From: Escherichia coli
Lineage (GTDB): Bacteria > Pseudomonadota > Gammaproteobacteria > Enterobacterales > Enterobacteriaceae
Strand: one strand, 5' to 3'
Assembly: GCF_044324875.1 (NCBI RefSeq)
Contig: NZ_CP172185.1
Length of the DNA: 64,000 nucleotides
The notes beneath the pieces are model-generated. The model was not told the DNA's origin. It was given only the letters and a program-made list of their open reading frames with translations, and did not search any database. Positions 1,889-63,566 of this stretch are shown here, piece after piece (the stretch's first letter is position 1; each line of letters starts with the position of its first letter). The position numbers and the translations under genes were made by a program.

Positions 1889-2779
1889 TCAGGCTGCCAG
1901 ATCATCGTTTCCGATGGAAGCATAATAAGCTTTTTCTGCTTCTGCCGGTGGGATATGGCCCAGCCTTTCCAGCAATCGTCGATTGTTATACCAGTCCACC
2001 CACGTGAGTGTGGCCAGCTCCACTTCTGTCCGGTTTTTCCAGCTCTTACGGTGTATTACCTCCGCTTTGTAAAGGCCATTGATGCTCTCCGCCATCGCGT
2101 TGTCATACGAGTCACCAGTACTTCCTGTTGATGCCAGTAATCCGGCTTCCTTAAGCCGCTGTGTGTAGGCCAGCGATACATACTGAGAACCTTTATCACT
2201 GTGATGGACTGTGCCGGACGGTCGACGGGCCCATAACGCCTGCTCCAGAGCATCCAGCACGAATGTCGTTTCCATAGACGATGAGACCCGCCACCCCACG
2301 ATGTATCCGGCAAACACATCAATGATGAACGCCACATAGACGACCCCCTGCCATGTGCTGACGTAAGTAAAATCAGCCACCCACAACTGGTCAGGACGTT
2401 CTGCCACAAACTGACGGTTTACGCGGTCGCCTGCGGCAACGGCTTTCCGGCTGACGGTAGTGCGGACCTTTTTACCCCGGAGAACACCGGCAAGTCCCAT
2501 AACCGCCATGAGGCGCGCCACTGTACATCTGGCTACCCTGATTCCTTCCCGTAACAACTGACGCCAGACTTTACGCACACCGTATACCTGATGATTCCCA
2601 TCGTATACGCGCAGTATCTCTTTCTTCAGCCAGTCATCGCGCTGCGCACGGGCACTGCGTTTATCCGGATGATGTCGCTGTTGCTGACAGTGGTAATACG
2701 TTGACGGGGCAATATGTAGTTCACTGCATACCGGTCCGACCCCGTACAGCTTACGCAGCTTATCCAGCAGTGGCATCAC
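1889..2779 (-). CDS. IS629 OrfB (DDE transposase catalytic subunit)
   Basis: 296 aa rve-domain ORF with IS3-family DDE motifs. Confidence 0.9.
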
Positions 2780-3102
2780 TTTTTCCAGAGGCGGTCGAAC
2801 TCCGCCTTCGCAAAATAAGCGGAAGCCTGGCGAAGGATATCGTTACTGCGGCGCAGTTCACGATTTTCACGTTCCAGCTCTTTCAGACGCTGACGTTCAG
2901 CGGTGGTGAGCCCGCCATCACCGCCTCCGGTATCCCGCTCATGCTGGCGTACCCAGACACGCAGAGTCTCCGGTGTACAGCCAATCTTTGGGGCAATGGA
3001 ACAAATTGCCGCCCACTGTGAGTCATATTCGCCCTGACTTTCCAGAACCATACGAATCGCCCTCTGACGGACTTCGGGGGAAAAACGAGTATTTTTAGTC
3101 AT
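2776..3102 (-). CDS. IS629 OrfA (HTH transposase subunit)
   Basis: 108 aa [19 protein letters not shown]...; overlaps OrfB as in IS3-family programmed -1 frameshift organisation. Confidence 0.9.
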
Positions 3103-3622
3103 TCTGTTTACCTCTTTCTCAGGGAGTTTAGTCTCCAGGATTCCCGGGGCGGTTCATTGTGTTTAAAGATGGCTCCAACGGACATAAATCGCTGTTTATG
3201 GGTTATGCGACCCCGAAAGCATTTTATGAAGCCCTGAAAGAGGCAGGTGGTACACCGGGCGAAAACATGACGATGGATAATAAAGAAACGACTCATGTCA
3301 CAGGCAGCAAACTGGATATTTCGGTCAACTGGCAAGGGGCGGCAAAAGCGTATTCCTTCGATGAAGTGATTGTTGACAGTAATGGCAAGAAACTGGACAT
3401 GCGCTTTGGCGGTAATTTAACGGCAGCAGAAGAGAAGAAAACGGGCTGCCTGGTGTGTCTGGATAGCTGCCCGGTCGGCATCGTCAGCAATGCAACATAC
3501 ACTTATGGTGCGGTTGAAAAACGAGGTGAAGTTAAATTCAAAGGCAATGCCTCGGTTCTCCCGGCGGATAACACGCTGGCAACGGTTACCTTTAAAATCA
3601 CCGAATAAAGCCAGGATAAAGA

Positions 3623-4878: not shown

Positions 4879-5065
4879 GGAGGGTACTACCTTCACTTCT
4901 ACCTCTGCCTCCCAAACTCCGTAAAACTCATGCACAATCACCATATTACAGTCAACCCGAACATTATGAGCTCCACTGAATTCTACTGTTCACCCCCTAA
5001 ATCAAGCATAAAATGGGGGCATATTTGGGGGCCCATTGTGTTCAGTCAGTTTCAGGAGCCCCCAT

Positions 5066-6253
5066 ATGGCACTTACAGCCAGACAAGTCGAAACAGCCAA
5101 ACCTAAAGACAAAGATTATAAACTCTCTGATGAACGTGGTTTATATCTGCTGGTAAAAACCACGGGAGCACGCTACTGGCGCTTTAAGTACAGGATAGCA
5201 GGAAAGGAGAAAAAACTGTCCTTCGGTGTCTATCCTGACGTCTCCCTTGCAGAAGCCAGAACCAAACGCGACGATGCAAGGAAAATTATCTCCGAGGGCG
5301 GTGATCCCGGTGAAAAGAAACGAAGGGAAAAACTCTCACAGAAAATCTCTGTCACCAACACCTTCCATGCTCTCGCAATCGAATGGCATCATCATAAATC
5401 TTTATCATGGTCTGACAGTTACGCCAGAAGCGTACTGGAAGCTCTGGATAAAGACGTTTTCCCGTATCTGAGCAACCGGAGCGTTACTGATATCCTTCCA
5501 CTGGAAATGCTGGAAATACTACGTCGAATTGAAAAACGAGGCTCTCTGGAAAAACTACGCAAGGTCCGGCAATACTGCAATCAGATTTTCCGTTATGCCA
5601 TAGCCACAGGACGAGCCACTGTCAATCCAGCCTCAGAACTGAGCAGCACGCTGGCGGCACCAAAAACCGCACATTTTCCCCATCTGAGAGCGGATGAACT
5701 TCCTGTTTTTCTCCGGAAGCTCGCTGACTATCACGGCAGTCCTGTCACTCGTATGGCTACAAACCTGCTGATTCTGACCGGGCTCAGAACGATTGAATTG
5801 CGACTGGCCGAATGGTCAGAAATTGATTCTAGCAACGCACTCTGGCATATCCCTAGAGAGAGAATGAAAATGCGCCGGCCTCATATTGTTCCTCTGTCAC
5901 GCCAGGTCATTTCTGTTCTGCAGGAATTACATGGTTTTACCGGACAGTATCGCCTTATGCTACCCGGACGTTGCGATGTAAACAAACCTATGAGTGAAGG
6001 CTGCATCAATATGGTGCTCAAACGTATCGGTTACGATGGCAGGGCAACCGGTCATGGTTTTCGTCACACCATGAGTACCATTCTGCACGAACAGGGCTTT
6101 AATTCTGCCTGGATTGAAATGCAGTTAGCTCATGTGGATAAAAACTCCATCAGGGGTACCTATAATCATGCACATTATCTCGATGGTCGCCGTAAAATGA
6201 TGCAGTGGTACGCTGATTACATTGATTCTCTTATGGGAAAAACGCACAAATGA
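5066..6253 (+). CDS. Tyrosine recombinase, P4-type island integrase
   Basis: ORF 5036..6253; likely start MALTARQVETAKPKDKDYKL at 5066 with AGGAG 8 nt upstream; P4-integrase N-terminal signature and C-terminal catalytic region (HGFRHT...Y). Confidence 0.85.
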   Translation: MALTARQVETAKPKDKDYKLSDERGLYLLVKTTGARYWRFKYRIAGKEKKLSFGVYPDVSLAEARTKRDDARKIISEGGDPGEKKRREKLSQKISVTNTFHALAIEWHHHKSLSWSDSYARSVLEALDKDVFPYLSNRSVTDILPLEMLEILRRIEKRGSLEKLRKVRQYCNQIFRYAIATGRATVNPASELSSTLAAPKTAHFPHLRADELPVFLRKLADYHGSPVTRMATNLLILTGLRTIELRLAEWSEIDSSNALWHIPRERMKMRRPHIVPLSRQVISVLQELHGFTGQYRLMLPGRCDVNKPMSEGCINMVLKRIGYDGRATGHGFRHTMSTILHEQGFNSAWIEMQLAHVDKNSIRGTYNHAHYLDGRRKMMQWYADYIDSLMGKTHK

Positions 6254-8401: not shown

Positions 8402-9417
8402 TCCCCCCTGATAAAAATATTAAAGTTCAGCGGATGTTACTGTCCGCCAGTTATTTTTTGCGAGCCACTCTATCTGTTCACAAAATATTTCAGGTGAAAG
8501 TGTCACAAGCCCCGGACAGCGACTGACATGATGGTACATCAGTACGGGAAGATGTCTTGCATTCAACATAAAGCATTATCACCAGTTAGTTATACAGTAA
8601 ATATACCCCGAGTAAAAACAGGGCGGTTTAGGATATGTCTGGCTCCGGGTATTCTACTATGTAATCAGGGAATAATGGACAATGAGAATACAACAGACAC
8701 TTTTAATATTTCCGACTGTTTATCAAAATAATTTTATCCTTTGTGAATATATTGTTTTTATCAGATGATTTACTTATTTTCCAGGAAAATAAAATCCTTC
8801 GATTTCAGGACACTCAGAGGAATATACCTGCTTCCGTCAAAAATCATAAAAACCGTGTCCCGATTAGTTTTAGCAGCAGGATCAAATGCAGTAATATAAT
8901 GATCTTATACCAGTAAGCCACTGGGAAATGCCCTCAAAATGTCGTGCACTGATTTTTCGGTTGAGAGCCTCATAATACCTAATATTACTGGCCGTAATAA
9001 TCCGGAGGCACAGCATAGCTTTCTTGTACAGAGGCATCATGATGAACAGGATTAATACCGTCACAGATGCACAAGTTTTACCCGTGATAAAGAATCCCGT
9101 TTTGTCCGCACTTGCCTGCGCCAGCGTTGAAAACGTGCCGGTTATTGTAGTTAAGTTATTGCCGCTAACTTTTTCACAACCCACCTATCCGGATATTTCC
9201 TTATTCTTCATATATTACATCTCATAAATTTAAATGTGAGTTTCTCATGGGTAAAATAAATTATACGAATCGCATCAATAGGAAAGACAGACGGTGCTGC
9301 CGATATAAAACGGGAAGTGACGGGATAAGCAGTTATGTGAATATTGTTTCAAAAAATGATATTTTGTGTTGTTAAAGTATAACTTTGCAATAAGCTATCC
9401 ATGATGGGATTCTGTAA

Positions 9418-9771
9418 ATGAACAAAACACTCTCTTCAATTCTGCTCATCTTCGGTATCTGTGCATCATCACTGGCTGCTGATAAAAAAGAACCGTCAGT
9501 TTTCCACGATGTGAAGGGCAGGAAGCATCGGCTGTTTCAGCCAGCGTCAAACGGAACTATCTCCAGAAACAGGTGCTTCACAGGAAAGATGACTAGGTGC
9601 TCCTCAGTCAGCAGCGTCCTGTTGTCTGGGTGAATCTTCGTGAGCTGGTAAGTAAAGGTGATAATTTAGTCACAGCGCATCTCACCGCCAGGGGGAATAA
9701 AGCCGATATTCAGTATCGGGTGCGCATTGACTGTAAGAACGAAAACGCTATCTGGCAGCGCCAGGGATGAA
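9418..9771 (+). pseudogene. Small signal-peptide protein, broken by frameshifts and an in-frame amber codon
   Basis: ORF 9418..9633 has an N-terminal signal peptide; the continuation ...VNLRELVSKGDNLVTAHLTARGNKADIQYR.../...VRIDCKNENAIWQRQG lies in other frames; family not recognised. Confidence 0.3.
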
Positions 9772-10267
9772 CGCTTGAAGATAACCACAGAGTATGAACA
9801 AACGGACTCTACATGTTCATTATGACTAAAAAAACGCTGCACGTTCTCTGTTTTATTTTACGTTGCTGTCATAACGTGTTTACCTCAATTTTCGGGAACG
9901 TGTTCTTAGCGCTTAGACTACCCCTGAATCTTCTGCTGTTGAAGGGCCGTAACAGGGTAAGTGATAACAGATGTCTGGACATATAGGAGCAAATTCACCG
10001 ATTTACTTAATCATGATGTTATTTTGTAAAATAAGCTGAGGGGAGTTTCACATAATGTTAGTTTTTGTGTAAACGCAAGAAGGAAAATCAATAAAATTAA
10101 TATATAGTTATATGTTGTAGGTGTGAGTATGACTGTTTGGCCGTGGAGTGCATTCCTAAATTAGGATTGGATCATTTAAGGTTTAACACATTATTAAATA
10201 CGGCAAATTACAGTAAAATACTTTGCCGTATTTAGAAATAAAATTAAATTTTTCTATAGAATATTAT

Positions 10268-10657
10268 TTATCTGAATTTTCGGTGGCCTTCCAGTTTTAT
10301 ATTATTCATTTTATCCAGAGCATCACGTAGTGACTCTATATTCCCCGACTCAACCTTCTCTTTTGCAAGATTGATTTCATTTTGTAGTTTCTTCAACTCA
10401 TTCTTATAACTTTCCACTGCGACTTTATCGTTGCTGTTTATTTTTTCAGGAAGAGTATTCATGGAAGCATTTACAGCTTTGTCCATCATATCAAGAGCAT
10501 TTAATAGAGATTTTTTATCACCAGAGGATTGTAGAGTGCTCATATTTCTTGCAAGGCTCTGCATATTTTTATCCAGTCCGGAAGCCAAAGATATATGACT
10601 GGTAGATAAACACATTACAAGTATAGAACTCACAATAAAGAATTTTTGTTTCTTCAT
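10268..10657 (-). CDS. Cytochrome b562-family periplasmic protein (divergent)
   Basis: 129 aa; signal peptide; four-helix-bundle-like sequence with Met near the mature N-terminus (DKNMQSL) and C-terminal ...EGHRKFR resembling the CybC ...YHQKYR heme-ligand region; AT-rich surroundings. Confidence 0.55.
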   Translation of the reverse strand: MKKQKFFIVSSILVMCLSTSHISLASGLDKNMQSLARNMSTLQSSGDKKSLLNALDMMDKAVNASMNTLPEKINSNDKVAVESYKNELKKLQNEINLAKEKVESGNIESLRDALDKMNNIKLEGHRKFR

Positions 10658-10954
10658 TAATTTACTCCTATTCGAAAGTGATTATCGTCATGGCAATTTA
10701 ACTTTATTATTCTATCTTTTATGGATGTACATCTCCTATATGGGTATACACAAGAAAATGTGATGCATTTCTAAAAACTATTCTACTTTATTCGGTATTG
10801 CTGAATGATTCACCATTAAGAAAATAGATATAACAGTTCTTTATTTCTTTTATTTAACATGGTTGTATTAAATATTCAACAGGTTTTCTAATACCAGTTG
10901 GGCTTTGTTGAAAAAATCTGATTTAGGGTAAGAGCCCCGTAGCTAGTTGTGCTT

Positions 10955-26681: not shown

Positions 26682-28769
26682 TCAGAACTGATAGTTCAGC
26701 GACATCCAGTAATTTCTCTCAGGTATCACATAACCCGTTGTCGATGCCCCCGTCTGGAAGTAATCACCCGCATAAAGCGTACCACTGCCGGCACGATACA
26801 GACTTACGTCACTGTAATCCTTGTTAAGCACATTATTCACCGCTGCATTCAGCATCAGTGCATCCGTCACTTTCCACGACATGCCCGCATCCAGTACCGT
26901 CCAGGCTTTCAGATATTCACCTTTCTCATCATACACTTTCTTCTGTACAGCTGAGAGTGACGAATAATTCTGGGTGAAACGTGGCGTTTTCCCGCGGTAA
27001 CGGGCACCCAGCCATGATGTCACCTCTTCAGTAATCTGCCAGTTCAGTTTCGCATTCACCATATGCTCAGGGGTGTAACTCAGTGGTGCACCTTTATTAT
27101 CCCCATCCCGTTGTTCACTCTGCGTCCAGGTATAATTCAGAGACAGAGTCACATCCTCTGACAACAGAGGCAGTGTGCCGGCAAATTCCACGCCCTGAGT
27201 CCTAGCCTTTCCGCTGTTTGTGTAGCTGCGGGTATTATCATCAATGGAATAAGATACGATCTTGTTGGAGAATTCTGTCATAAAGCCCGTGATATTGGCG
27301 TTCAGACCGGCATGATTATCGTAATACACGCCCGCTTCATAACTGACACTCTCCTCCGGCTTCAGGTCCGGGTTACCGAGAAGATTCGTACGCCCCTGAC
27401 CGGACACACCGCTGATCCCCTTATGTAACTGCCCCATGCTGGGCGCCTTATATCCCGTGGTCACCCCACCTTTCAGCGTCCACGCATCAGTCACATCCCA
27501 GACCATATATGCCCGGGGACTGAAGTGTCCTCCGAACACCTCATAGCGTTCATAGCGGCTACCCGCAGTCAGTGCAAATGCATCCGTGATATACCACTCA
27601 TCCTCAACAAATGCCGACCAGCTTTTCTGACGGAAGGTTTCACCAGTACTGGCGAGAACAACCCCGTCTTTCATGGAGGAGTTCTGATACTCACCACCGA
27701 CGGTAACCTTGTGTGATTCCCCCAGAGGTGCAAACAGTAATGAGCTCAGGATAAGATTCGACTCCTTAAGCTCCCTCGGCTGGCCGGCAAGCCCCCATTT
27801 ATCACGCTGCAGTACGCTACGTACAAGCTGACGGCCTTTATTTTCCGTCTCATTCCAGTTCAGGGATGACTTCCAGGCTCCGAAGGTGAATGTATGATCA
27901 TAGCCTGCTGAAATTTTATTACGCTCATAGCGCAGGGTGCGATCATAACCGCCCGTCAGACTGCCCAGCTGGCCATCTCGGTTATCATAACGCTGCCGGG
28001 CGATATCCATATCAATCCAGAGTACATCCTTGTCCGTCGCTTTCCAGTCAAGACGACCACCTGCATTATAATTCTGTGATTCCGTGGGATAAGGGATACG
28101 CGTAGCTGAGGTGTCGCTCAGTGATGTGACCGATGAGCCCTGACGCTGCTGTGTGCTGCCACGTACCTGAAGGCTGAGTGAATCATCCACAAGGGGACCG
28201 CTGCTCCAGAAATTAAACTGGCTGCTGTTCCCCCATTTGTTACTTTCCTGCAGGTTCAGCCCGGCATTAACCGAAGAGCGCCATTTGTCTGCATTCTTTT
28301 TGGTGATGATATTCACCACGCCCCCCATGGCATCAGAGCCGTACAGAGTGGACATGGGGCCCCTGATAATCTCAATACGTTCGATGGCGGCCAGAGGTGG
28401 CATAAAACCCGTATTCATGGCAGCATAACCGTTTGGGGTTACGTCACTGCTCCCGCCCTGACGGACACCATCGATCAGTATCAGCGTATAACTGGCAGGC
28501 ATTCCGCGGATGCTGATTTCCAGCCCACCTGTTTTACCCGTACCGCTTTCAACATCCACCCCCTCTACGGATCTCAGTGCCTCCCCCAGATCATGATACT
28601 GGCTGGATCGCAAATCCTCCTGGCTGATCACTGAAACACTCGCAGCTGCACTGGTTAATTTTTTTTCATAGCCAGACGCCGTGACTACCATCACATCTTC
28701 CGCAGCCATACTGCTGACTGAAAACCCGAGACAAGGGATGGCTACTGAAGCCAGAGTGGTTACTCGCAT
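26682..28769 (-). CDS. iha: TonB-dependent outer-membrane siderophore receptor/adhesin Iha (IrgA homologue)
   Basis: 695 aa; signal peptide; TonB-box/plug then beta-barrel ending ...YWMSLNYQF; closely matches Iha as recalled. Confidence 0.8.
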   Translation of the reverse strand: MRVTTLASVAIPCLGFSVSSMAAEDVMVVTASGYEKKLTSAAASVSVISQEDLRSSQYHDLGEALRSVEGVDVESGTGKTGGLEISIRGMPASYTLILIDGVRQGGSSDVTPNGYAAMNTGFMPPLAAIERIEIIRGPMSTLYGSDAMGGVVNIITKKNADKWRSSVNAGLNLQESNKWGNSSQFNFWSSGPLVDDSLSLQVRGSTQQRQGSSVTSLSDTSATRIPYPTESQNYNAGGRLDWKATDKDVLWIDMDIARQRYDNRDGQLGSLTGGYDRTLRYERNKISAGYDHTFTFGAWKSSLNWNETENKGRQLVRSVLQRDKWGLAGQPRELKESNLILSSLLFAPLGESHKVTVGGEYQNSSMKDGVVLASTGETFRQKSWSAFVEDEWYITDAFALTAGSRYERYEVFGGHFSPRAYMVWDVTDAWTLKGGVTTGYKAPSMGQLHKGISGVSGQGRTNLLGNPDLKPEESVSYEAGVYYDNHAGLNANITGFMTEFSNKIVSYSIDDNTRSYTNSGKARTQGVEFAGTLPLLSEDVTLSLNYTWTQSEQRDGDNKGAPLSYTPEHMVNAKLNWQITEEVTSWLGARYRGKTPRFTQNYSSLSAVQKKVYDEKGEYLKAWTVLDAGMSWKVTDALMLNAAVNNVLNKDYSDVSLYRAGSGTLYAGDYFQTGASTTGYVIPERNYWMSLNYQF

Positions 28770-37799: not shown

Positions 37800-38560
37800 T
37801 GAGTGAGTGCATTTCGTACAGTTAACCGCAAAAGGAGGGGGTACTCCATTCCATGAACTGGAAGCCCAGATACGATGCATAGAGTCACCTGATATTAAAA
37901 AGAACGAGGATCTTGAGGACGAGAACCGACGTCCAAAACAGATGCTTGCCGACCTTAGCCTAGAGAACCGGCATTGAAAGACATTATCGAAAAAAGCTTT
38001 AAAACCAGCCTGTAAGCGTGAGCTTGTTACTCATCAGATAACGACATTTGGACTCAGTGTCCATCAGGCCTGCCGGAGTCTGAACCAGAGCAGAACGGTT
38101 TCCCATTACCGTCCGGATACCACGTGGTACGACCCCGTTATTGTGGTGGTGCAGGCAGTGGACGAGCGATATCCTCGATACGGTTTTTCAAAACTTTTTC
38201 AGGTTCTGAGGCAGCAGGTTCGCGGCAAATCGCAGTTATCCGGTCATGCTGCGCATAGATAATGGTTCGGAATTTATCTCTCTAACGCTGGCTGAATGGG
38301 CTGATATACACGCAGTAAAACGGGAGTTTATCCAGCCGGGTAAGCTGACGTAGAACGCTTTTATTGGGCGTTTTAACAGGACACACCGTACAGAAATACT
38401 CGATTTTTATCTGTTCAGAACGCTGAATGAAGTTCTAGAAATTACGGAGAAATGGTTATCAGAATATAGCTATGAACGCACACATGAATCACTGAACAAT
38501 AAGACGCTGGAAGAATATCGACGACACCATTATTTGACCAAGATATAAAAATGCATGGAA
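37800..38560 (+). pseudogene. Degenerate IS3-family OrfB with several in-frame stops
   Basis: ...MLRIDNGSEFISLTLAEWADIHAVKREFIQPGKLT*NAFIGRFNRTHRTEILDFYLF... Confidence 0.5.
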
Positions 38561-38707
38561 TTAAAACGGGGCATATTTATATATGAATAACACAACTATA
38601 TCGCTAAGGTAAAGGTGTATCCAAACGGAGAATACAGCACTAACAGCATATATTCATCCAAATTAATAAAATATGACCGAGAACATAGAATATTAAACAT
38701 TTTTAAA

Positions 38708-39967
38708 TTATGCTTTTCTCGCTAACGCGTCTATATCCGAAAAATACTCTTTAATTCCCTCTAGGATAGATTCTGCCACTTGTTGTTGGAATCTTGCCGT
38801 TTTCAGTTTGCGCTCTTCCTCAACGTTACTGATAAACGCCGTTTCGACCAGAATGGAGGGAATATCAGGTGCTTTCAGCACGGCAAACCCGGCCTGTTCA
38901 ACCTGATTTTTATGCAGCTTGTTGATTTTACCGAGCTTATTCAGCACCGCTTTACCCAACTTCAGGCTGTCGGCAATGGTCAGAGACTGCACCATATCGA
39001 ACATGGTGTGGTCGACATAGCGGTCACCGCTTTTGCTCACGCCGCCAATCAAGTCCGAGGCGTTCTGGGTTTGTGCCAGATATTTTGCCGCAGTACTTGT
39101 CGCGCCTTTGGTCGAAAGCGCAAACACGGAAGAACCGCTCGGCTGGCGACTGGTAAAGGCATCAGCATGGATAGAAACAAAAAGGTCAGCACGTTGTTTC
39201 TGTGCTTTTGCTACACGCACTTGCAACGGAATGAAGATGTCTTCATTGCGCGTCATGTACACCTTCATATTACCCTCTTTTTCGATCAGAGAGCGCAGAC
39301 GGCGAGCTATTTGCAATACCACGTCTTTTTCGCGTGTTTTGTATTTCCCCACCGCACCGGGGTCTTCGCCACCGTGGCCGGGGTCAAGCATAATGACAAT
39401 CGGACGATCACGCCCTGCTTTACCCGGTTGTGGACCACTTTGTGCTGGCGGCACCTGCTTTTCGAGGTCGCCTTTGTTGTAATCCTCCAGCAGCGCCAGC
39501 AGCGGGTCCTGCATATCCTGTGCATTGGCCGGATAGAGGTCCATCACCAGACGCTCTTTAAACCCGGCGACCGGCGCAAGGGCAAACAGCTGCGGTTTTA
39601 CGTTTTGCTTTAATTCAAAAACCATGCGTACGGTTTGCGGGTCAAATTGCCCGACGCGCGCCGACTTGATGAACGGGTCGTCTGCACGAATTTGTGCCGC
39701 CATCCCCTTGAGTACCGAGTTCAGGTTTACATCTTCGATATCCACCACCACACGTTCAGGGTTACTTAACGCGAACTGCTTATATTGCAGCTGACGATTT
39801 GATTCTACCGTCACGCGGGTGTAGCTGGACGCAGGCCAGACGCGTACCGCCACGACCTGGCTGACCGCAGCCAGGCTGACCTGACTTACGCTCAATAGCC
39901 ACATGGCGCCCGCACCTTGCAGTAAACGACGACGGCTGATTACATAATTATAGTTAGATACCAGCAT
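38708..39967 (-). CDS. amiC: N-acetylmuramoyl-L-alanine amidase AmiC (Tat-exported), divergent 5' end
   Basis: 419 aa; [10 protein letters not shown] Tat motif; body matches AmiC as recalled; first ~10 codons and upstream DNA differ from K-12 and are AT-rich. Confidence 0.8.
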
Positions 39968-40609
39968 ACCTTACCTAAGCAATACAATGTTCAATAATAT
40001 AACTATGCTCTAATAAATTTTTACAGGTGTTTAAAGAAATAATCACACGTATTCTTATCTTTGCAATCTAATCTAATTTTAAATAAAGGTCAATATCTTA
40101 TTTTTTGATATAAGTTTTCTTAAATACCACGATATAAAAACATTTTATTTAAGTGATTTCTTTTAGTTTGTTTTTCAAATAAAAGGGATGTACTCATGAC
40201 ATTTTAAATATGTACATCATGCACAGCAATATTATAGTTTTTTATCTGATTACTGAGAAGTATCTATCAATAGAACAATGTTTTTTAGTTTGTATAGGGA
40301 AGAGTTGGGTTGAATTGAGAATAAAAACTAGAGATTACTGGGGAAGGAACTTTTCAAATCCGAAATCATGGTCTACAATGAAAAAATGATGTTCTAAGTA
40401 TTCCTATCATGAATAAGAATGCACCATATTTTGAATAGTATAATTTTATATTTATATATCCTTTACTGTACGATGATGATATTTTATACCTGAATGACAA
40501 GGGTGTTATTTTATACCACATATAAATTTGCAGAAAATATAAAATGAGAAGCACTGAATAATCGCGGCTTCTGGCTATGATTTAAATGTTTTTACATTTT
40601 TTCAAAGTA

Positions 40610-42045
<1,436 letters not shown>

Positions 42046-48925: not shown

Positions 48926-49570
48926 TTAACGAACCGTCCATGCAGGGCTGAAATCCTCTTCCTGAAACAGCTCTGTCAGCCCGCTAATCTGTTTCAGCCT
49001 CAGCACTTCATCCTGGTCCATGCCCAACTCTGTGCCAATACGCTCATCTGTCCAGCCCAGACGTGAGAGGTCCCTGACAATGTCAGACATTGACGTTACC
49101 TGGTGTTTTCCCCTGGCACGGTTATGCCGTATGGTTGCGGCAATACGTGATGCCTGTCCCTTTCTCTCTGGATTAATACAGGCCACTGGCAGCCAGCCCT
49201 TCAGACGTTTTCTCGTATCCGCTTTCCTGCCCAGCAACTGACGATGAAAACCATCCACGACCAGATAATGCTCCTTCTCTTCCGAAACCACCACAGGCTG
49301 CGTGAATCCATCCTGCTCCAGTGAATGTTTAAGCAGTTTTTTTTCACTGGAAGACATGACATTGGGATTGTAATCGTTGGCCACCACCTCATCCGCTTTC
49401 ACCCACAACACACAGTCCACAGGCTCCTGTGCAAAAGGGCTGACCTCATGCAACACCCTGCGCAGATGATTAAGGGCTCGTATGGTCTCTTCTTCAGATC
49501 GTTCCTGACTGAAGTACTGTCGAATCATGTTGCTCAATACTTCCACCTCAGGTGTCACAGAATCCCCCAT
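48926..49570 (-). CDS. ParB-like nuclease-domain protein (IbrB/YbdM-like)
   Basis: 214 aa; VVDGFHR motif; 16-bp overlap with the upstream partner; symbol withheld because homology is from memory. Confidence 0.6.
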   Translation of the reverse strand: MGDSVTPEVEVLSNMIRQYFSQERSEEETIRALNHLRRVLHEVSPFAQEPVDCVLWVKADEVVANDYNPNVMSSSEKKLLKHSLEQDGFTQPVVVSEEKEHYLVVDGFHRQLLGRKADTRKRLKGWLPVACINPERKGQASRIAATIRHNRARGKHQVTSMSDIVRDLSRLGWTDERIGTELGMDQDEVLRLKQISGLTELFQEEDFSPAWTVR

Positions 49571-50781
49571 TCCTTCCTCCTTTCTTTCATACGCTGCAGA
49601 TAACGTTCATAGTGCCGGGGTTTGTTCGGACTGAAGGAGAGGGTCCGACACCAGAAATCATTCTTTATGAGTGTCTTACAGATACGTCGCCAGGACGGGA
49701 TATCCCGGCTCCCCAGGTCATTCTCCTGTTCATCCGGGATGTCATCCGGGAAGCCCCGCGTCTGATACCAGCGCAGGTAGACAGCAATTTTATTACGGTA
49801 ATGTTCTGCCGTTCTTTCCGGCATCACATCCAGCAGGAACATCGCATAGCTACGCCAGGTATGATGAGGTGGCTTCGTGATACGCTTACGCAGGGCAAAA
49901 TAGGCACCGCTCTCATTGGCATAAAGCGCCCCGCTGGCAGCACCCGACACCCGCTCACACATCCTGGCCCAGGTTTCCGGCTCCAGAACATGGTAAAGCC
50001 ACAGTCCCTTACGCTGTTCCGGGCCAAAAGGCTCACAGACCCGCATGTTGCGTAACGGCACGCCGGCACGGTACATCAGGTCATACAGGGGATTGTAGAT
50101 AGCCCGGGTTCTGGCGTTATATATCCATATATCACGGGCTTTCCAGTCATACAACGGATACAAGGTGTAATAAAACCCTTCAGGTGACGCTGTGGTCCAG
50201 GGTTTATCATCTGCATATCTCAGTTTGCGCTGAGACACCAGTCCCATAAAGCGATTGAGCGATTCATCAGCACGAACACCAGTCAGTATTGCCACTCCAC
50301 ACCGGTTACCGGCAAACCAGGAAGAAAATGCCGGAACAAATTCTTCAAACGTCATGGCATACCGATAAAATGGGAAATACGACATATCTGTAATAGCGTC
50401 ATCTGGTGGCTGACGAACCCACTCCACACCTGGTTCCCAGCATATCCATTCCGGCTGAAACTGAGAGACACCGTTTACCGTAGTCAGGGGGAGTGCCACC
50501 CAGTAAAAGGTATCCGTCACATCCCGGTACATTTCCCGCATCTTCTGAACATGTTCAATGGTGCACTGATACTGAGCTTCCCAGTCAATGAATAATACAG
50601 AGAAACGACGTTTCTTCCTGCGAGCCACATCAGCCGCAAGATGGAGCAGCACAGTGGAGTCTTTTCCTCCGGAAAAAGACAAACAGACAGAAGAGAATGT
50701 TTCAAACAACCATTCAATACGGCGAATAGAAGAATGAAATACATCATCCTCTTTTATTATCTTTCGTATAGTTCCTGACAT
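49555..50781 (-). CDS. PAPS-reductase-like (DUF3440) protein (IbrA/YbdN-like)
   Basis: 408 aa; SGGKDS PP-loop motif near the N-terminus; paired with the ParB-like gene. Confidence 0.6.
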   Translation of the reverse strand: MSGTIRKIIKEDDVFHSSIRRIEWLFETFSSVCLSFSGGKDSTVLLHLAADVARRKKRRFSVLFIDWEAQYQCTIEHVQKMREMYRDVTDTFYWVALPLTTVNGVSQFQPEWICWEPGVEWVRQPPDDAITDMSYFPFYRYAMTFEEFVPAFSSWFAGNRCGVAILTGVRADESLNRFMGLVSQRKLRYADDKPWTTASPEGFYYTLYPLYDWKARDIWIYNARTRAIYNPLYDLMYRAGVPLRNMRVCEPFGPEQRKGLWLYHVLEPETWARMCERVSGAASGALYANESGAYFALRKRITKPPHHTWRSYAMFLLDVMPERTAEHYRNKIAVYLRWYQTRGFPDDIPDEQENDLGSRDIPSWRRICKTLIKNDFWCRTLSFSPNKPRHYERYLQRMKERRKEWGIL

Positions 50782-53235: not shown

Positions 53236-55505
53236 TGTGTGCCCGGAGTTCAGGGCGAGCATAGACGCTCAAATGAACCACGAGTCTGTCTGGAATATTG
53301 AACCGGTAACTCACGATGAGAAACCCAACAATCCCACCGGGTGTGACGGTGGAGAACCTGAGCGGCAGTGACCTGCGGCATGCCCGCAGGGTGATGTAAC
53401 CCGCTGACAACGGGGATTGAGGCGAGATCACTAAGCCGAGATGATCCTCAAGGTTAAGTACTGAAAGGCTTAAGAATATGAACCCGTTAATCCGCCTCTG
53501 TGGGTTGAAAACGTCACCACGGCCTACGTGATCTGACAGGCCGTGCAGGAGGAACTGGCAGTGATACGTAAGCACTGCCGGTCGAAGGTGTTTTGACATG
53601 TATGCGAAACTCCGGGGCAGCAGCGTCTATCACGCTCGCGTTGCTGACTTCTGCCAACTTGCGGCAAGCAAGGATAAAGAGTGCGACGGGCAGCCTCCTC
53701 AGTATGTCTGAGTCCAGTCAGGCAAACCGGGGAAGGTCAGCGACGGATGTTAAGGGGGCATGGCTCCGATGACGCGCTGGCTGGCGGAGCTTCCGTAGTA
53801 GTCCGCGATGGGGAAAGCCCATTACATGGCGAAGGGAAGCAGTTTGAATGTGTCTGCGACGTAAATTAACTGACCTAACGAGGTGAAGACCTTTGATAAT
53901 CAGCGAAATGCAACGCAAGCTTGCCACATGGGCAGCCACCGATCCGTCCCTACGGATTCAACGGCTGCTGCGTCTGATAACACAACCAGAATGGCTGGCT
54001 GAAGCGGCGCGGATCACGCTTTCATCAAAGGGGGCGAATACCCCCGGTGTTGATGGCGTGAACAAAACAATGCTACAGGCCAGACTGGCTGTTGAGCTGC
54101 AAATCCTCAGGGATGAATTACTCTCAGGCCACTACCAGCCCTTGCCCGCCAGGCGGGTTTACATCCCTAAAAGCAATGGCAAACTGCGACCACTGGGTAT
54201 CCCCGCGTTGCGGGATCGTATTGTTCAGCGGGCCATGCTGATGGCGATGGAGCCGATATGGGAGAGTGATTTTCATACGCTCTCATATGGCTTCCGGCCT
54301 GAGCGCAGTGTCCACCACTCGATCCGCACGGTGAAATTACAGCTCACCGACTGCGGTGAAACCCGGGGACGCTGGGTGATTGAAGGCGACCTGTCCAGTT
54401 ACTTCGACACCGTACATCATCGACTGCTGATGAAGGCTGTACGCCGCAGGATCAGTGACGCACGTTTCATGACTCTGCTGTGGAAAACCATCAAGGCGGG
54501 ACATATCGATGTCGGTCTCTTTCGGGCGGCCAGTGAAGGTGTGCCACAGGGCGGTGTTATATCGCCGCTATTGTCGAACATCATGCTGAATGAGTTCGAT
54601 CAATACCTGCATGAGCGCTACCTGAGCGGGAAAGCAAGAAAAGATCGGTGGTACTGGAATAACAGTATCCAACTGGGCCGAAGTACGGCGGTCAGAGAAA
54701 ACTGGCAGTGGAAACCCGCGGTGGCGTACTGCCGCTATGCCGATGATTTTGTCCTCATCGTCAAAGGCACCAAAGCACAGGCGGAAGCCATCAGGGAGGA
54801 GTGTCGGGGTGTGCTCGAAGGCAGTCTGAAACTCAGGCTGAACATGGATAAGACTAAAATCACCCATGTTAATGACGGCTTTATCTTTCTGGGGCACAGG
54901 ATCATTCGCAAACGCAGTCGTTATGGCGAGATGCAAGTGGTCTCAACGATCCCGCTGGAGAAAGCCAGAAACTTCGCCGCATCGCTGACAGCACTGTTAT
55001 CAGGCAACTACAGTGAAAGCAAAGTCGATATGGCTGAACAACTCAACCGAAAACTGAAAGGCTGGGCCATGTTCTATCAGTTCGTTGATTTTAAGGCCAA
55101 AGTCTTCAGTTATATCGACCGTGTCGTGTTCTGGAAGCTGGCTCACTGGCTGGCCCGCAAATACCGTACAAGTATCGCTTCCCTGATGAGGTGGTGGTGT
55201 AAATCACCGAAACCGGGTCAGAGCAAAACGTGGGTTTTATTTGGTAAAACCAATCACGGCAAGCTCAGCGGCGAAATACTGTACCGGTTGGTGGGGCAAG
55301 GCAAGAAGCTGTTCCGCTGGCGGCTACCCGAAGGTAATCCCTATCTGAGGACGGAAACCAGAAAGACGTATACATCGCGCTTTACAGAAGTGGCAATGGC
55401 GTTCGCCAGCGTTTAAATGGAGAGCCGGATGCGCTGAAAGGTGCATGTCCGGTTCGGGGAGGAGAGGCAGGGAAATAGTCCGACTACGCCCTGCCTCTTA
55501 CTCTA
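53236..55505 (+). mobile_element. Bacterial group II intron with intron-encoded protein (boundaries +/- 3 bp)
   Basis: 5' TGTGTG start; IEP ORF 53893..55416; domain V-like GAGCCGGATGCGCTGAAAGGTGCATGTCCGGTTC at 55422..55455 followed by a domain VI-like stem. Confidence 0.75.
53893..55416 (+). CDS. Group II intron reverse transcriptase/maturase
   Basis: 507 aa, full length; RT motifs including YADD (CRYADDFVLIV) and a C-terminal maturase region. Confidence 0.85.
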   Translation: MIISEMQRKLATWAATDPSLRIQRLLRLITQPEWLAEAARITLSSKGANTPGVDGVNKTMLQARLAVELQILRDELLSGHYQPLPARRVYIPKSNGKLRPLGIPALRDRIVQRAMLMAMEPIWESDFHTLSYGFRPERSVHHSIRTVKLQLTDCGETRGRWVIEGDLSSYFDTVHHRLLMKAVRRRISDARFMTLLWKTIKAGHIDVGLFRAASEGVPQGGVISPLLSNIMLNEFDQYLHERYLSGKARKDRWYWNNSIQLGRSTAVRENWQWKPAVAYCRYADDFVLIVKGTKAQAEAIREECRGVLEGSLKLRLNMDKTKITHVNDGFIFLGHRIIRKRSRYGEMQVVSTIPLEKARNFAASLTALLSGNYSESKVDMAEQLNRKLKGWAMFYQFVDFKAKVFSYIDRVVFWKLAHWLARKYRTSIASLMRWWCKSPKPGQSKTWVLFGKTNHGKLSGEILYRLVGQGKKLFRWRLPEGNPYLRTETRKTYTSRFTEVAMAFASV

Positions 55506-58765: not shown

Positions 58766-59290
58766 TTATGGGATGATACCACAGGCAATTCTTGCACCAC
58801 CGCCACCTAGAGGTTCAGGATGGTCATCATGATTATCACCTCCTGCGTGGAGCATTAGCGAACGGCCATCGAGCTCCTTTAATTCAGATAGTCTTGGCGC
58901 AAGCACCGGGTAGGTTGCTTTTCCGTCATGAGTGACATAAAGCGCAGGGAGATCACCCAGGTGGCCATCAGGAGACCATGGACCGAGATGCTTCCCTGTT
59001 TTTTCCGGGTCAAAGTGACCACCTGCAGATAAAGCAGCGACAGTTTTTCCATCTTTCAGGGCAGGAGCACAACTTGCGTTTTCATGTACATGAAAACCAT
59101 GAATGCCGGCGGGTAAGGAGTGAAGATCAGGGGTGAACAGCAGCCCGTAGGGTGTCTTCTGGATGGTTATTTTACCAATATTTCGCTCTTTTCCGTCACT
59201 ATCAACAAGATTCATTGTTACATCTTTGGTGGCTGCATATCCACAGGATGATGTAGCCAGAATCACAAAGGCAATAAGTTTACGTTTCAT
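58766..59290 (-). CDS. sodC: Periplasmic Cu/Zn superoxide dismutase (island-borne, divergent from chromosomal SodC)
   Basis: 174 aa; signal peptide; metal-ligand motifs HGFHVHE and [12 protein letters not shown]. Confidence 0.85.
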
Positions 59291-62651: not shown

Positions 62652-63566
62652 ATGCACTCAATAAAAAAATTAACCATGCTCTTGGGGTTCCTCGCCCTCA
62701 CCTGCTCGATCGCATTTCAGGCGAGTGCAACTGAAAAATTCAAGGTCATTACAACATTTACCATCATCGCAGATATGGCCAAAAACGTGGCTGGAGATGC
62801 TGCAGAAGTCTCATCCATAACCAGGCCCGGTGCAGAAATTCATGAGTATCAGCCTACCCCTGGCGATATTAAACGTGCGCAGGGGGCACAACTGATTCTC
62901 GCCAACGGTATGAATCTGGAATTGTGGTTCCAGCGCTTTTACCAGCATCTCAGTGGTGTTCCAGAAGTGATTGTCTCTTCGGGTGTGACGCCAGTAGGGA
63001 TCACCGAAGGCCCCTACGAGGGAAAACCTAACCCTCATGCCTGGATGTCGCCAGATAATGCTTTGATTTACGTCGATAATATTCGTGATGCGTTGATAAA
63101 ATACGATCCGGCAAATGCAAAAACATACCAACGTAATGCCGATACTTATAAAGCCAAGATTACCCAAACCCTTGCCCCCCTGCGTAAGCAGATTGCTGAA
63201 CTCCCTGAGAATAAAAGATGGATGGTCACCAGTGAAGGGGCTTTTTCTTATCTCGCACGCGATTTGGGGCTAAAAGAGCTTTATCTGTGGCCGATAAATG
63301 CCGATCAACAAGGAACACCCCAGCAGGTACGTAAAGTGGTTGATATAGTGAAGAAAAATAATATCCCAGCGGTATTTAGTGAGAGTACGGTTTCCGATAA
63401 ACCAGCGCGTCAGGTTGCGCGTGAAACCGGCGCACACTACGGCGGTGTGCTCTATGTCGATTCCCTGAGCACAGAAAACGGCCCGGTACCTACGTATATC
63501 GACCTTCTGAAGGTTACTACCAGTACGCTGGTGCAGGGAATTAAAGCCGGGAAAAGGGAGAAGTAA
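62652..63566 (+). CDS. sitA: Mn/Fe ABC transporter periplasmic binding protein SitA
   Basis: 304 aa; signal peptide; TroA/ZnuA-like cluster-9 binding protein; followed by an ATPase gene. Confidence 0.8.
   Translation: MHSIKKLTMLLGFLALTCSIAFQASATEKFKVITTFTIIADMAKNVAGDAAEVSSITRPGAEIHEYQPTPGDIKRAQGAQLILANGMNLELWFQRFYQHLSGVPEVIVSSGVTPVGITEGPYEGKPNPHAWMSPDNALIYVDNIRDALIKYDPANAKTYQRNADTYKAKITQTLAPLRKQIAELPENKRWMVTSEGAFSYLARDLGLKELYLWPINADQQGTPQQVRKVVDIVKKNNIPAVFSESTVSDKPARQVARETGAHYGGVLYVDSLSTENGPVPTYIDLLKVTTSTLVQGIKAGKREK

Follow-up and report, generated by a model that had tools for sequence, protein, structure and literature searches.

A second, island-borne amiC gene in Escherichia coli that is a mosaic of an E. 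coli-type middle and divergent ends

AmiA and AmiC are Tat substrates required for the separation of daughter cells; AmiC is auto-inhibited and is activated at the division site by NlpD. The 64-kb stretch of E. coli DNA analyzed here (the window) carries an AmiC-like gene with an unfamiliar 5' end, lying among remnants of insertion sequences. A previous sequence-only reading left two origins open for it, a horizontally acquired second amiC or the native gene moved by IS-mediated rearrangement, and the question that we address is which of these, if either, accounts for the gene. We refer to it as amiC2; the gene, its segments and its surroundings are as follows.

38708..39967, minus strand: amiC2, an intact 419-aa ORF, accessory copy of the N-acetylmuramoyl-L-alanine amidase gene amiC
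38796..39940, minus strand: core of amiC2, of E. coli lineage (gene nt 28-1172, 96.1% identical to K-12 amiC)
39941..39967, minus strand: divergent 5' end of amiC2, or head (codons 1-9, MLVSNYNYV; 26% GC)
38708..38795, minus strand: divergent 3' end of amiC2, or tail (last 29 codons plus stop, 88 nt)
39968..40672, minus strand: AT-rich upstream DNA, presumed to bear the promoter (27.4% GC; carrier-specific)
38580..38707, minus strand: AT-rich downstream DNA past the amiC2 stop codon (28.1% GC; carrier-specific)
37856..38579, plus strand: truncated IS3-family transposase fragment abutting the module on the left (annotation mapped from NZ_CP033635.1)
40673..40815, minus strand: IS911-like (IS3-family) fragment abutting the module on the right (annotation)

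The left fragment is homologous to other IS3 copies up to query position 200 (window 38579) and the right one to IS911-type copies from query position 134 (window 40673), thus the unique module extends over 38580-40672, about 2.09 kb. The gene does lie between IS debris, as had been proposed, and its neighbours are heavily decayed IS elements and pseudogenes.

The assignment of the body of the gene and its Tat motif to AmiC was confirmed by our comparisons. The protein contains the Pfam domains AMIN (residues 40-144, 2e-21) and Amidase_3 (residues 192-406, 6.9e-52), scores 792.6 bits against the NCBIfam model NF038267 (amidase_AmiC), for which the curated cut-off is 700, and stays under the cut-offs of the AmiA and AmiB models; over residues 36-418 it also matches the chain of the solved structure of E. 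coli AmiC, 4BIN (8e-241). RefSeq names it AmiC (WP_000961389.1), as it is annotated in carrier genomes, and an index of public assemblies lists this exact protein in 1,828 blocks. amiC2 is a bona fide member of the AmiC family, and the structure described below is a tidy and fairly ordinary case of gene mosaicism.

At the protein level amiC2 is 96% identical to K-12 AmiC (b2817; PDB 4BIN), with which it shares the AMIN and Amidase_3 domains, the zinc/catalytic residues and an identical Tat motif, SRRRLL. The signal peptide is the same from residue 10 on, the n-region before the Tat motif being its sole differing part, with h-region and cleavage site unchanged. Residues H198, E213, H267 and E375 (amiC2 numbering), corresponding in the AmiC structure to the zinc ligands and the catalytic glutamate of the Amidase_3 fold, are the same in amiC2 and K-12 AmiC when the two are aligned. 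The differences are found in the nine N-terminal residues, MLVSNYNYV in amiC2 against MSGSNTA in K-12 AmiC (whose N-terminus reads MSGSNTAISRRRLL), in the 29 C-terminal residues, where there are 10 changes, and at three core positions (K61Q, S203P and F337L), none of which touches the zinc/catalytic residues. The core, which includes the regulatory helix, is 99% identical to K-12 AmiC in the protein alignment, so activation of amiC2 by NlpD would be expected. Both genes also differ in setting: K-12 amiC adjoins argA, whereas amiC2 lies in a genomic island and has 27% GC foreign DNA in place of the native promoter region.

When 5,426 complete E. coli genomes were searched, the 2.1-kb amiC2 module was present with at least 99% identity in 57 of them (about 1%), many coming from chickens and some from human infections, and none of the 57 has a disrupted amiC2 ORF, its identity being 99% or more throughout. 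As for another amiC at the argA locus, which the sequence-only reading had suggested looking for, the native copy is there in carrier SMS-3-5, in the usual metV...amiC-argA-recD context by the tRNA-Met cluster region; in the same strain amiC2 is located in the pheV island, about 190 kb from native amiC and outside the canonical chromosomal locus that runs from the metZWV tRNA region to argA. The 30 carriers listed have two amiC places apiece, and two copies in every one of the 57 would agree with the totals of 5,483 places in 5,425 genomes. These observations show that amiC2 is a second copy and not a relocated native gene. Among the complete genomes, one amiC match falls on a plasmid record, one genome is without any match, and the native match of strain K1508 is in two pieces. 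An E. coli protein of 479 aa also named AmiC (P0034) has an additional Pfam domain, PF24837, and may be a fusion or an extended variant.

The per-site comparison with K-12 amiC gave 96.1% identity for the core, 57% for the head (first 27 nt) and 68% for the tail (last 88 nt). High nucleotide identity begins at gene nt 28 (window 39940); the replacement of about ten codons at the 5' end, claimed before, is therefore real and covers the first nine. Neither the N-terminus nor the upstream sequence is that of a canonical amiC allele. The 3' end has been replaced too, a feature absent from the earlier reading, with the last 29 codons and the downstream DNA also divergent from K-12. Divergence of amiC2 from K-12 is 3.9% in the core versus 32% in the tail (Fisher p = 3e-15), and the corresponding values for K-12 against Salmonella amiC, taken as a control pair, are 18% and 14%; the tail of ordinary amiC orthologues is thus no faster than the core, which indicates that the divergence of the amiC2 ends is not a normal property of the gene. 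Indeed, the 29 C-terminal residues are near-invariant among the native amiC genes of 80 Enterobacteriaceae species, and the amiC2 tail differs from all of these at 9 or more of the 29 residues. Eleven of the 19 tail codons with a conserved amino acid are synonymously different from K-12, as read from the alignments, arguing for longer divergence and not for relaxed protein constraint. Together with the drop in GC3 (0.59 in the core, 0.31 in the tail and 0.31-0.33 at the ends), these synonymous differences imply that the ends parted from Escherichia amiC much earlier than the core did.

The ends are nevertheless homologous to amiC to different degrees. For the tail this is certain (z = 12 against shuffles), while the head and up to about 60 nt upstream display a weak similarity to native amiC (p about 0.001-0.01 in shuffle tests; p = 0.001, weakly homologous, for the head plus the upstream 30 nt); more than about 60 nt upstream, or past the stop codon, similarity to native amiC is at the level of chance in the same kind of test. 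The description of the 5' end and upstream region as unrelated DNA thus fails for the head and the first 60 nt or so, and stands for what lies farther upstream.

A full-length homology search returned a single other sequence with amiC2-type ends, P0074, an AmiC-like protein of 417 aa encoded on a 5-kb contig, DAGCYQ010000186.1 (GCA_022047005.1, labelled Klebsiella pneumoniae). The head of amiC2 is 81% identical to the P0074 gene and the tail 88.6%, with 24 of the 29 tail residues identical, and both proteins share a P in the position seen in GHGGEDPG. The core of amiC2 behaves in the opposite manner, with 96% identity to K-12 amiC versus 87% to P0074, and the P0074 core is equally distant (87%) from E. 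coli amiC. The nearest relative is thus not the same along the gene, being E. coli for the core and P0074 for head and tail, which is a signature of recombination. Adjacent segments with differing divergence and differing nearest relatives are what define a mosaic gene, and these comparisons show amiC2, as judged from its sequence, to be a mosaic of an E. coli-type middle and foreign ends.

In Neisseria and Streptococcus, recombination between diverged alleles has produced mosaic genes for penicillin-binding proteins. amiC2 resembles them in having sharply bounded blocks of unequal divergence within one intact frame, with junctions in conserved stretches; it differs from them in being an extra copy borne by an island instead of the native locus, and in having no known selective agent behind it.

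Regarding the origin of the core, its identity is 95.5% to the resident native amiC of SMS-3-5, 93.7% to Escherichia sp. MOD1-EC7003, 92.0% to E. whittamii, 89.3% to E. albertii and 83-84% to Citrobacter and Salmonella; the native genes of K-12 and SMS-3-5 are 97.3% identical to each other. None of the native alleles in about 5,400 E. coli genomes exceeds about 96.8% identity to it, and no donor allele more than 97% identical was found. Five sites group amiC2 with both native alleles (K-12 and SMS-3-5), 3 group only the natives with each other and 16 changes occur in amiC2 alone, a distribution by which the core would branch near the base of the E. coli alleles, either at it or just outside. 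Recent gene conversion by the resident native copy was considered and rejected, since it is not compatible with a core that shares just 95.5% identity with the resident allele and no more than about 96.8% with any native one; the exchange is either old or took place in an unsampled E. coli-like host. Of the 16 amiC2-unique changes, 13 are synonymous and 3 (the substitutions named above) non-synonymous, pointing to purifying selection on the core. The non-synonymous share, 3/16 against 4/99 on the other branches, hints at a somewhat relaxed constraint on amiC2. An AT-biased drift peculiar to amiC2 was also discarded: there is an 11:5 excess of GC-to-AT changes, but the control branches match it.

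The P0074 contig gives little access to the flanks. It is cut at the start codon of the amiC-like gene, and its similarity to amiC2 stops about 9 nt past the stop codon, after which the DNA downstream is unrelated; the AT-rich flanks of amiC2 can therefore not be assigned to the P0074 lineage. A second homology search, seeded with P0074, returned no further members of this type, and neither complete E. coli genomes nor plasmids contained P0074-type DNA, so that the lineage supplying the amiC2 ends is represented by this singleton alone. Searches of genome, metagenome, plasmid and phage collections gave no unconverted ancestor of amiC2: a protein scan of genome contigs returned the native amiC genes of 80 species and nothing else, an exact 28-mer of the amiC2 5' end had no metagenome match, a degenerate tail-peptide pattern hit two contigs, each carrying the same mosaic gene, and a 43-aa tail query yielded fragments and nothing more.

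Next to the P0074 gene are a gene with a colicin M domain, a YebF/Cmi-like one and fragments of IS3. In the stretch 2581-3444 of DAGCYQ010000186.1, the first of these encodes a 151-aa protein with the colicin M catalytic-type domain alone and is followed by the convergent YebF/Cmi-like gene, possibly an immunity gene; a module for a toxin acting on peptidoglycan precursors thus adjoins a peptidoglycan amidase gene on this contig. There is also a small, putatively RHH-like ORF nearby. None of these neighbours (colicin-M-like, Cmi/YebF-like, DUF4376 and the small ORF) was linked by tblastn to the 64-kb window.

The claim that some 600 bp upstream of the gene are AT-rich was borne out as well: the segment 39968-40580 has 26.6% GC versus 48.9% for the window, the second lowest value among 1,268 overlapping windows of about 600 nt, and the upstream DNA is limited to the 57 carriers among the 5,426 complete genomes. 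Its source could not be traced, as the AT-rich flanks had no match in plasmid or phage collections and the downstream piece 38580-38707 displays no similarity to the DNA downstream of native amiC. Within the upstream region a search of Rfam gave no family, the small ORFs had no NCBIfam match, leaving it without a recognizable gene, and no notable repeats were present. Sigma-70-like matches are located at 40093-40065 and 40259-40231, although the number found (10, against a shuffle expectation of 6.2 +/- 2.3) is not clearly above chance. In enterobacteria, H-NS typically silences DNA of such a high AT content. The consensus that we tested as an H-NS motif had no match in the AT-rich upstream region, and it is a pattern under-represented across the whole 64-kb window. 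Since the native promoter region is absent, a different regulation of amiC2 is plausible, and by analogy with other AT-rich DNA its expression is probably low or conditional, in the manner of H-NS silencing.

Three other accounts of the gene have to be weighed against recombination. That native amiC was carried into the island by an IS-mediated rearrangement, gaining a new promoter on the way, is suggested by the IS fragments that bracket amiC2 and by a core that is clearly of E. coli type; nevertheless, native amiC is still at argA in SMS-3-5 and each of the listed carriers has two amiC places, the core is too distant from the resident copy and from every one of about 5,400 native alleles (the identities given above), and the replacement of both ends by homologous but diverged sequence is not a product of simple relocation. 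The relocation put forward in the sequence-only reading is refuted by the argA-linked copy, the two places and the core identity, and we regard it as extremely improbable. Its other proposal, a horizontally acquired second amiC, was right as to an acquired second copy and incomplete in that the gene is a recombinant with its 3' end replaced too. The transfer of a whole gene from one foreign donor without recombination, in which case the uneven divergence would reflect unusual constraints on the ends, would agree with a 2.09-kb module that is unique to carriers and has AT-rich edges, and P0074 demonstrates that such amiC ends exist elsewhere. We consider it very unlikely, however. Both ends are about eight times as diverged from E. 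coli as the core is, and the tail has a much higher density of synonymous differences, with GC3 down from 0.59 to 0.31; the closest sequence comes from E. coli for the core but is P0074 for the ends, and in native orthologues the tail ranks with the best-conserved parts of the gene.

It may also be asked if amiC2 is a silent, functionless passenger, its ORF being intact merely because the island spread recently. The setting of decayed IS elements and pseudogenes, the lack of a convincing promoter upstream and the slightly raised non-synonymous share on the amiC2 branch are all in line with such a view, and with copies at least 99% identical selection within the carriers is not measurable; on the other hand, 13 synonymous versus 3 non-synonymous changes over about 1.1 kb speak for purifying selection acting on the core over a long time, none of the catalytic or export motifs is damaged, and amid neighbouring pseudogenes the ORF is intact in 57 of 57 complete genomes. 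We thus judge a functionless amiC2 to be unlikely.

The reading that we favor, and hold to be probable, is that of an accessory island-borne amiC2 assembled by recombination of two amiC lineages and most likely working like AmiC. Homologous recombination between these lineages would have joined a 1.15-kb internal tract, derived from an E. coli stem-lineage allele, to a ribosome-binding region, first 9 codons and last 29 codons from a rare P0074-type amiC lineage. The crossover on the 5' side would lie within a 26-nt identity run over the twin-arginine motif and that on the 3' side within identity runs of 56 and 14 nt over a conserved region, with the flanks of about 27% GC being presumably foreign. 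As to direction, either the core entered a foreign gene or foreign ends were placed onto an E. coli gene. The product would follow the Tat route, be recruited to the septum via its AMIN domain and split septal peptidoglycan like native AmiC; as amiC2 keeps all the features that define AmiC, its protein is most likely a Tat-exported, septum-targeted, NlpD-activatable amidase equivalent to AmiC. What would change is its control, the native argA-amiC intergenic promoter region having given way to extremely AT-rich foreign DNA.

The literature search returned no paper on an E. coli amiC that is a second copy, lies in an island or is mosaic. Loss of both amiA and amiC attenuates an extraintestinal pathogenic E. 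coli and makes it sensitive to stress (PMC7549933). A further amiC under another control region could add redundancy or a conditional amidase activity in carriers, and it could confound single-gene amiC knock-outs in these strains; annotation pipelines call both copies "AmiC", so the accessory copy is easily overlooked. Its practical consequence is small, and its interest is evolutionary, as a clear case of a housekeeping gene in which a mobile paralogue recombined with a chromosomal-type allele. A more far-reaching proposal, which we find quite unlikely, is that amiC2 and P0074 belong to a mobile accessory amiC lineage whose interior is repeatedly overwritten by the amiC of its host while its own 5' control and termini are kept, providing a conditional septal amidase. 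If this were true, overwriting would keep amiC2 compatible with the NlpD activator and divisome of the host, and an extra conditional amidase, regulated for example by stress or in virulence, would be at work in island-bearing poultry-associated and extraintestinal E. coli with effects on envelope robustness or virulence.

The island that harbors amiC2 in the window is large, IS-decayed and integrase-bearing, and starts directly after the stop codon of ynjA (window 4880-6253), with a P4-type integrase at 5066-6253; no tRNA gene was detected anywhere in the 64-kb window. The same interior is found in SMS-3-5 at tRNA-pheV, behind a related but distinct integrase, the int-proximal regions of the two (L088, 37140-37450) being about 75% alike upstream of int. 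The island of SMS-3-5, a strain of phylogroup F and ST354, has been described as the 91.9-kb GI-pheV with an unusually divergent integrase (PMC11537424). The closest relative of the window, NZ_CP033635.1, has the same IS-rich interior in an island that likewise starts directly after ynjA; relative to it the window has one ISEc31 copy missing and three extra segments, and the order of that genome is rearranged with respect to K-12. The shared interior comprises iha, amiC2, ibrAB-like genes, sodC and sitABCD, and the cargo is embedded in dense IS3, IS21, IS66, IS110 and IS630 debris. The cargo genes, together with the ORFs of a further AT-rich stretch, are:

26682-28769, minus strand: iha, siderophore receptor/adhesin
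49555-50781, minus strand: IbrA-like PAPS-reductase gene, with an ibrB-like gene adjoining
53893-55416, plus strand: group II intron reverse-transcriptase pseudogene
58766-59290, minus strand: second Cu/Zn superoxide dismutase gene, sodC (57% amino-acid identity to K-12 SodC)
62652-63566, plus strand: start of sitABCD
10268-10657, minus strand: cytochrome b562-like ORF, in the AT-rich stretch 9400-10700
9418-9633 and 9597-9770: split YebF-like ORF pair, in the same stretch

The island sodC is comparable to amiC2, both being second copies of genes for core periplasmic enzymes in the same island; sodC is uniformly distant from its native counterpart, whereas amiC2 has an interior of E. coli type. 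The other very AT-rich stretch of the window, 9400-10700 (about 31% GC), contains the cytochrome b562-like and YebF-like ORFs, which are further extra copies of genes for small periplasmic or secreted proteins in this island.
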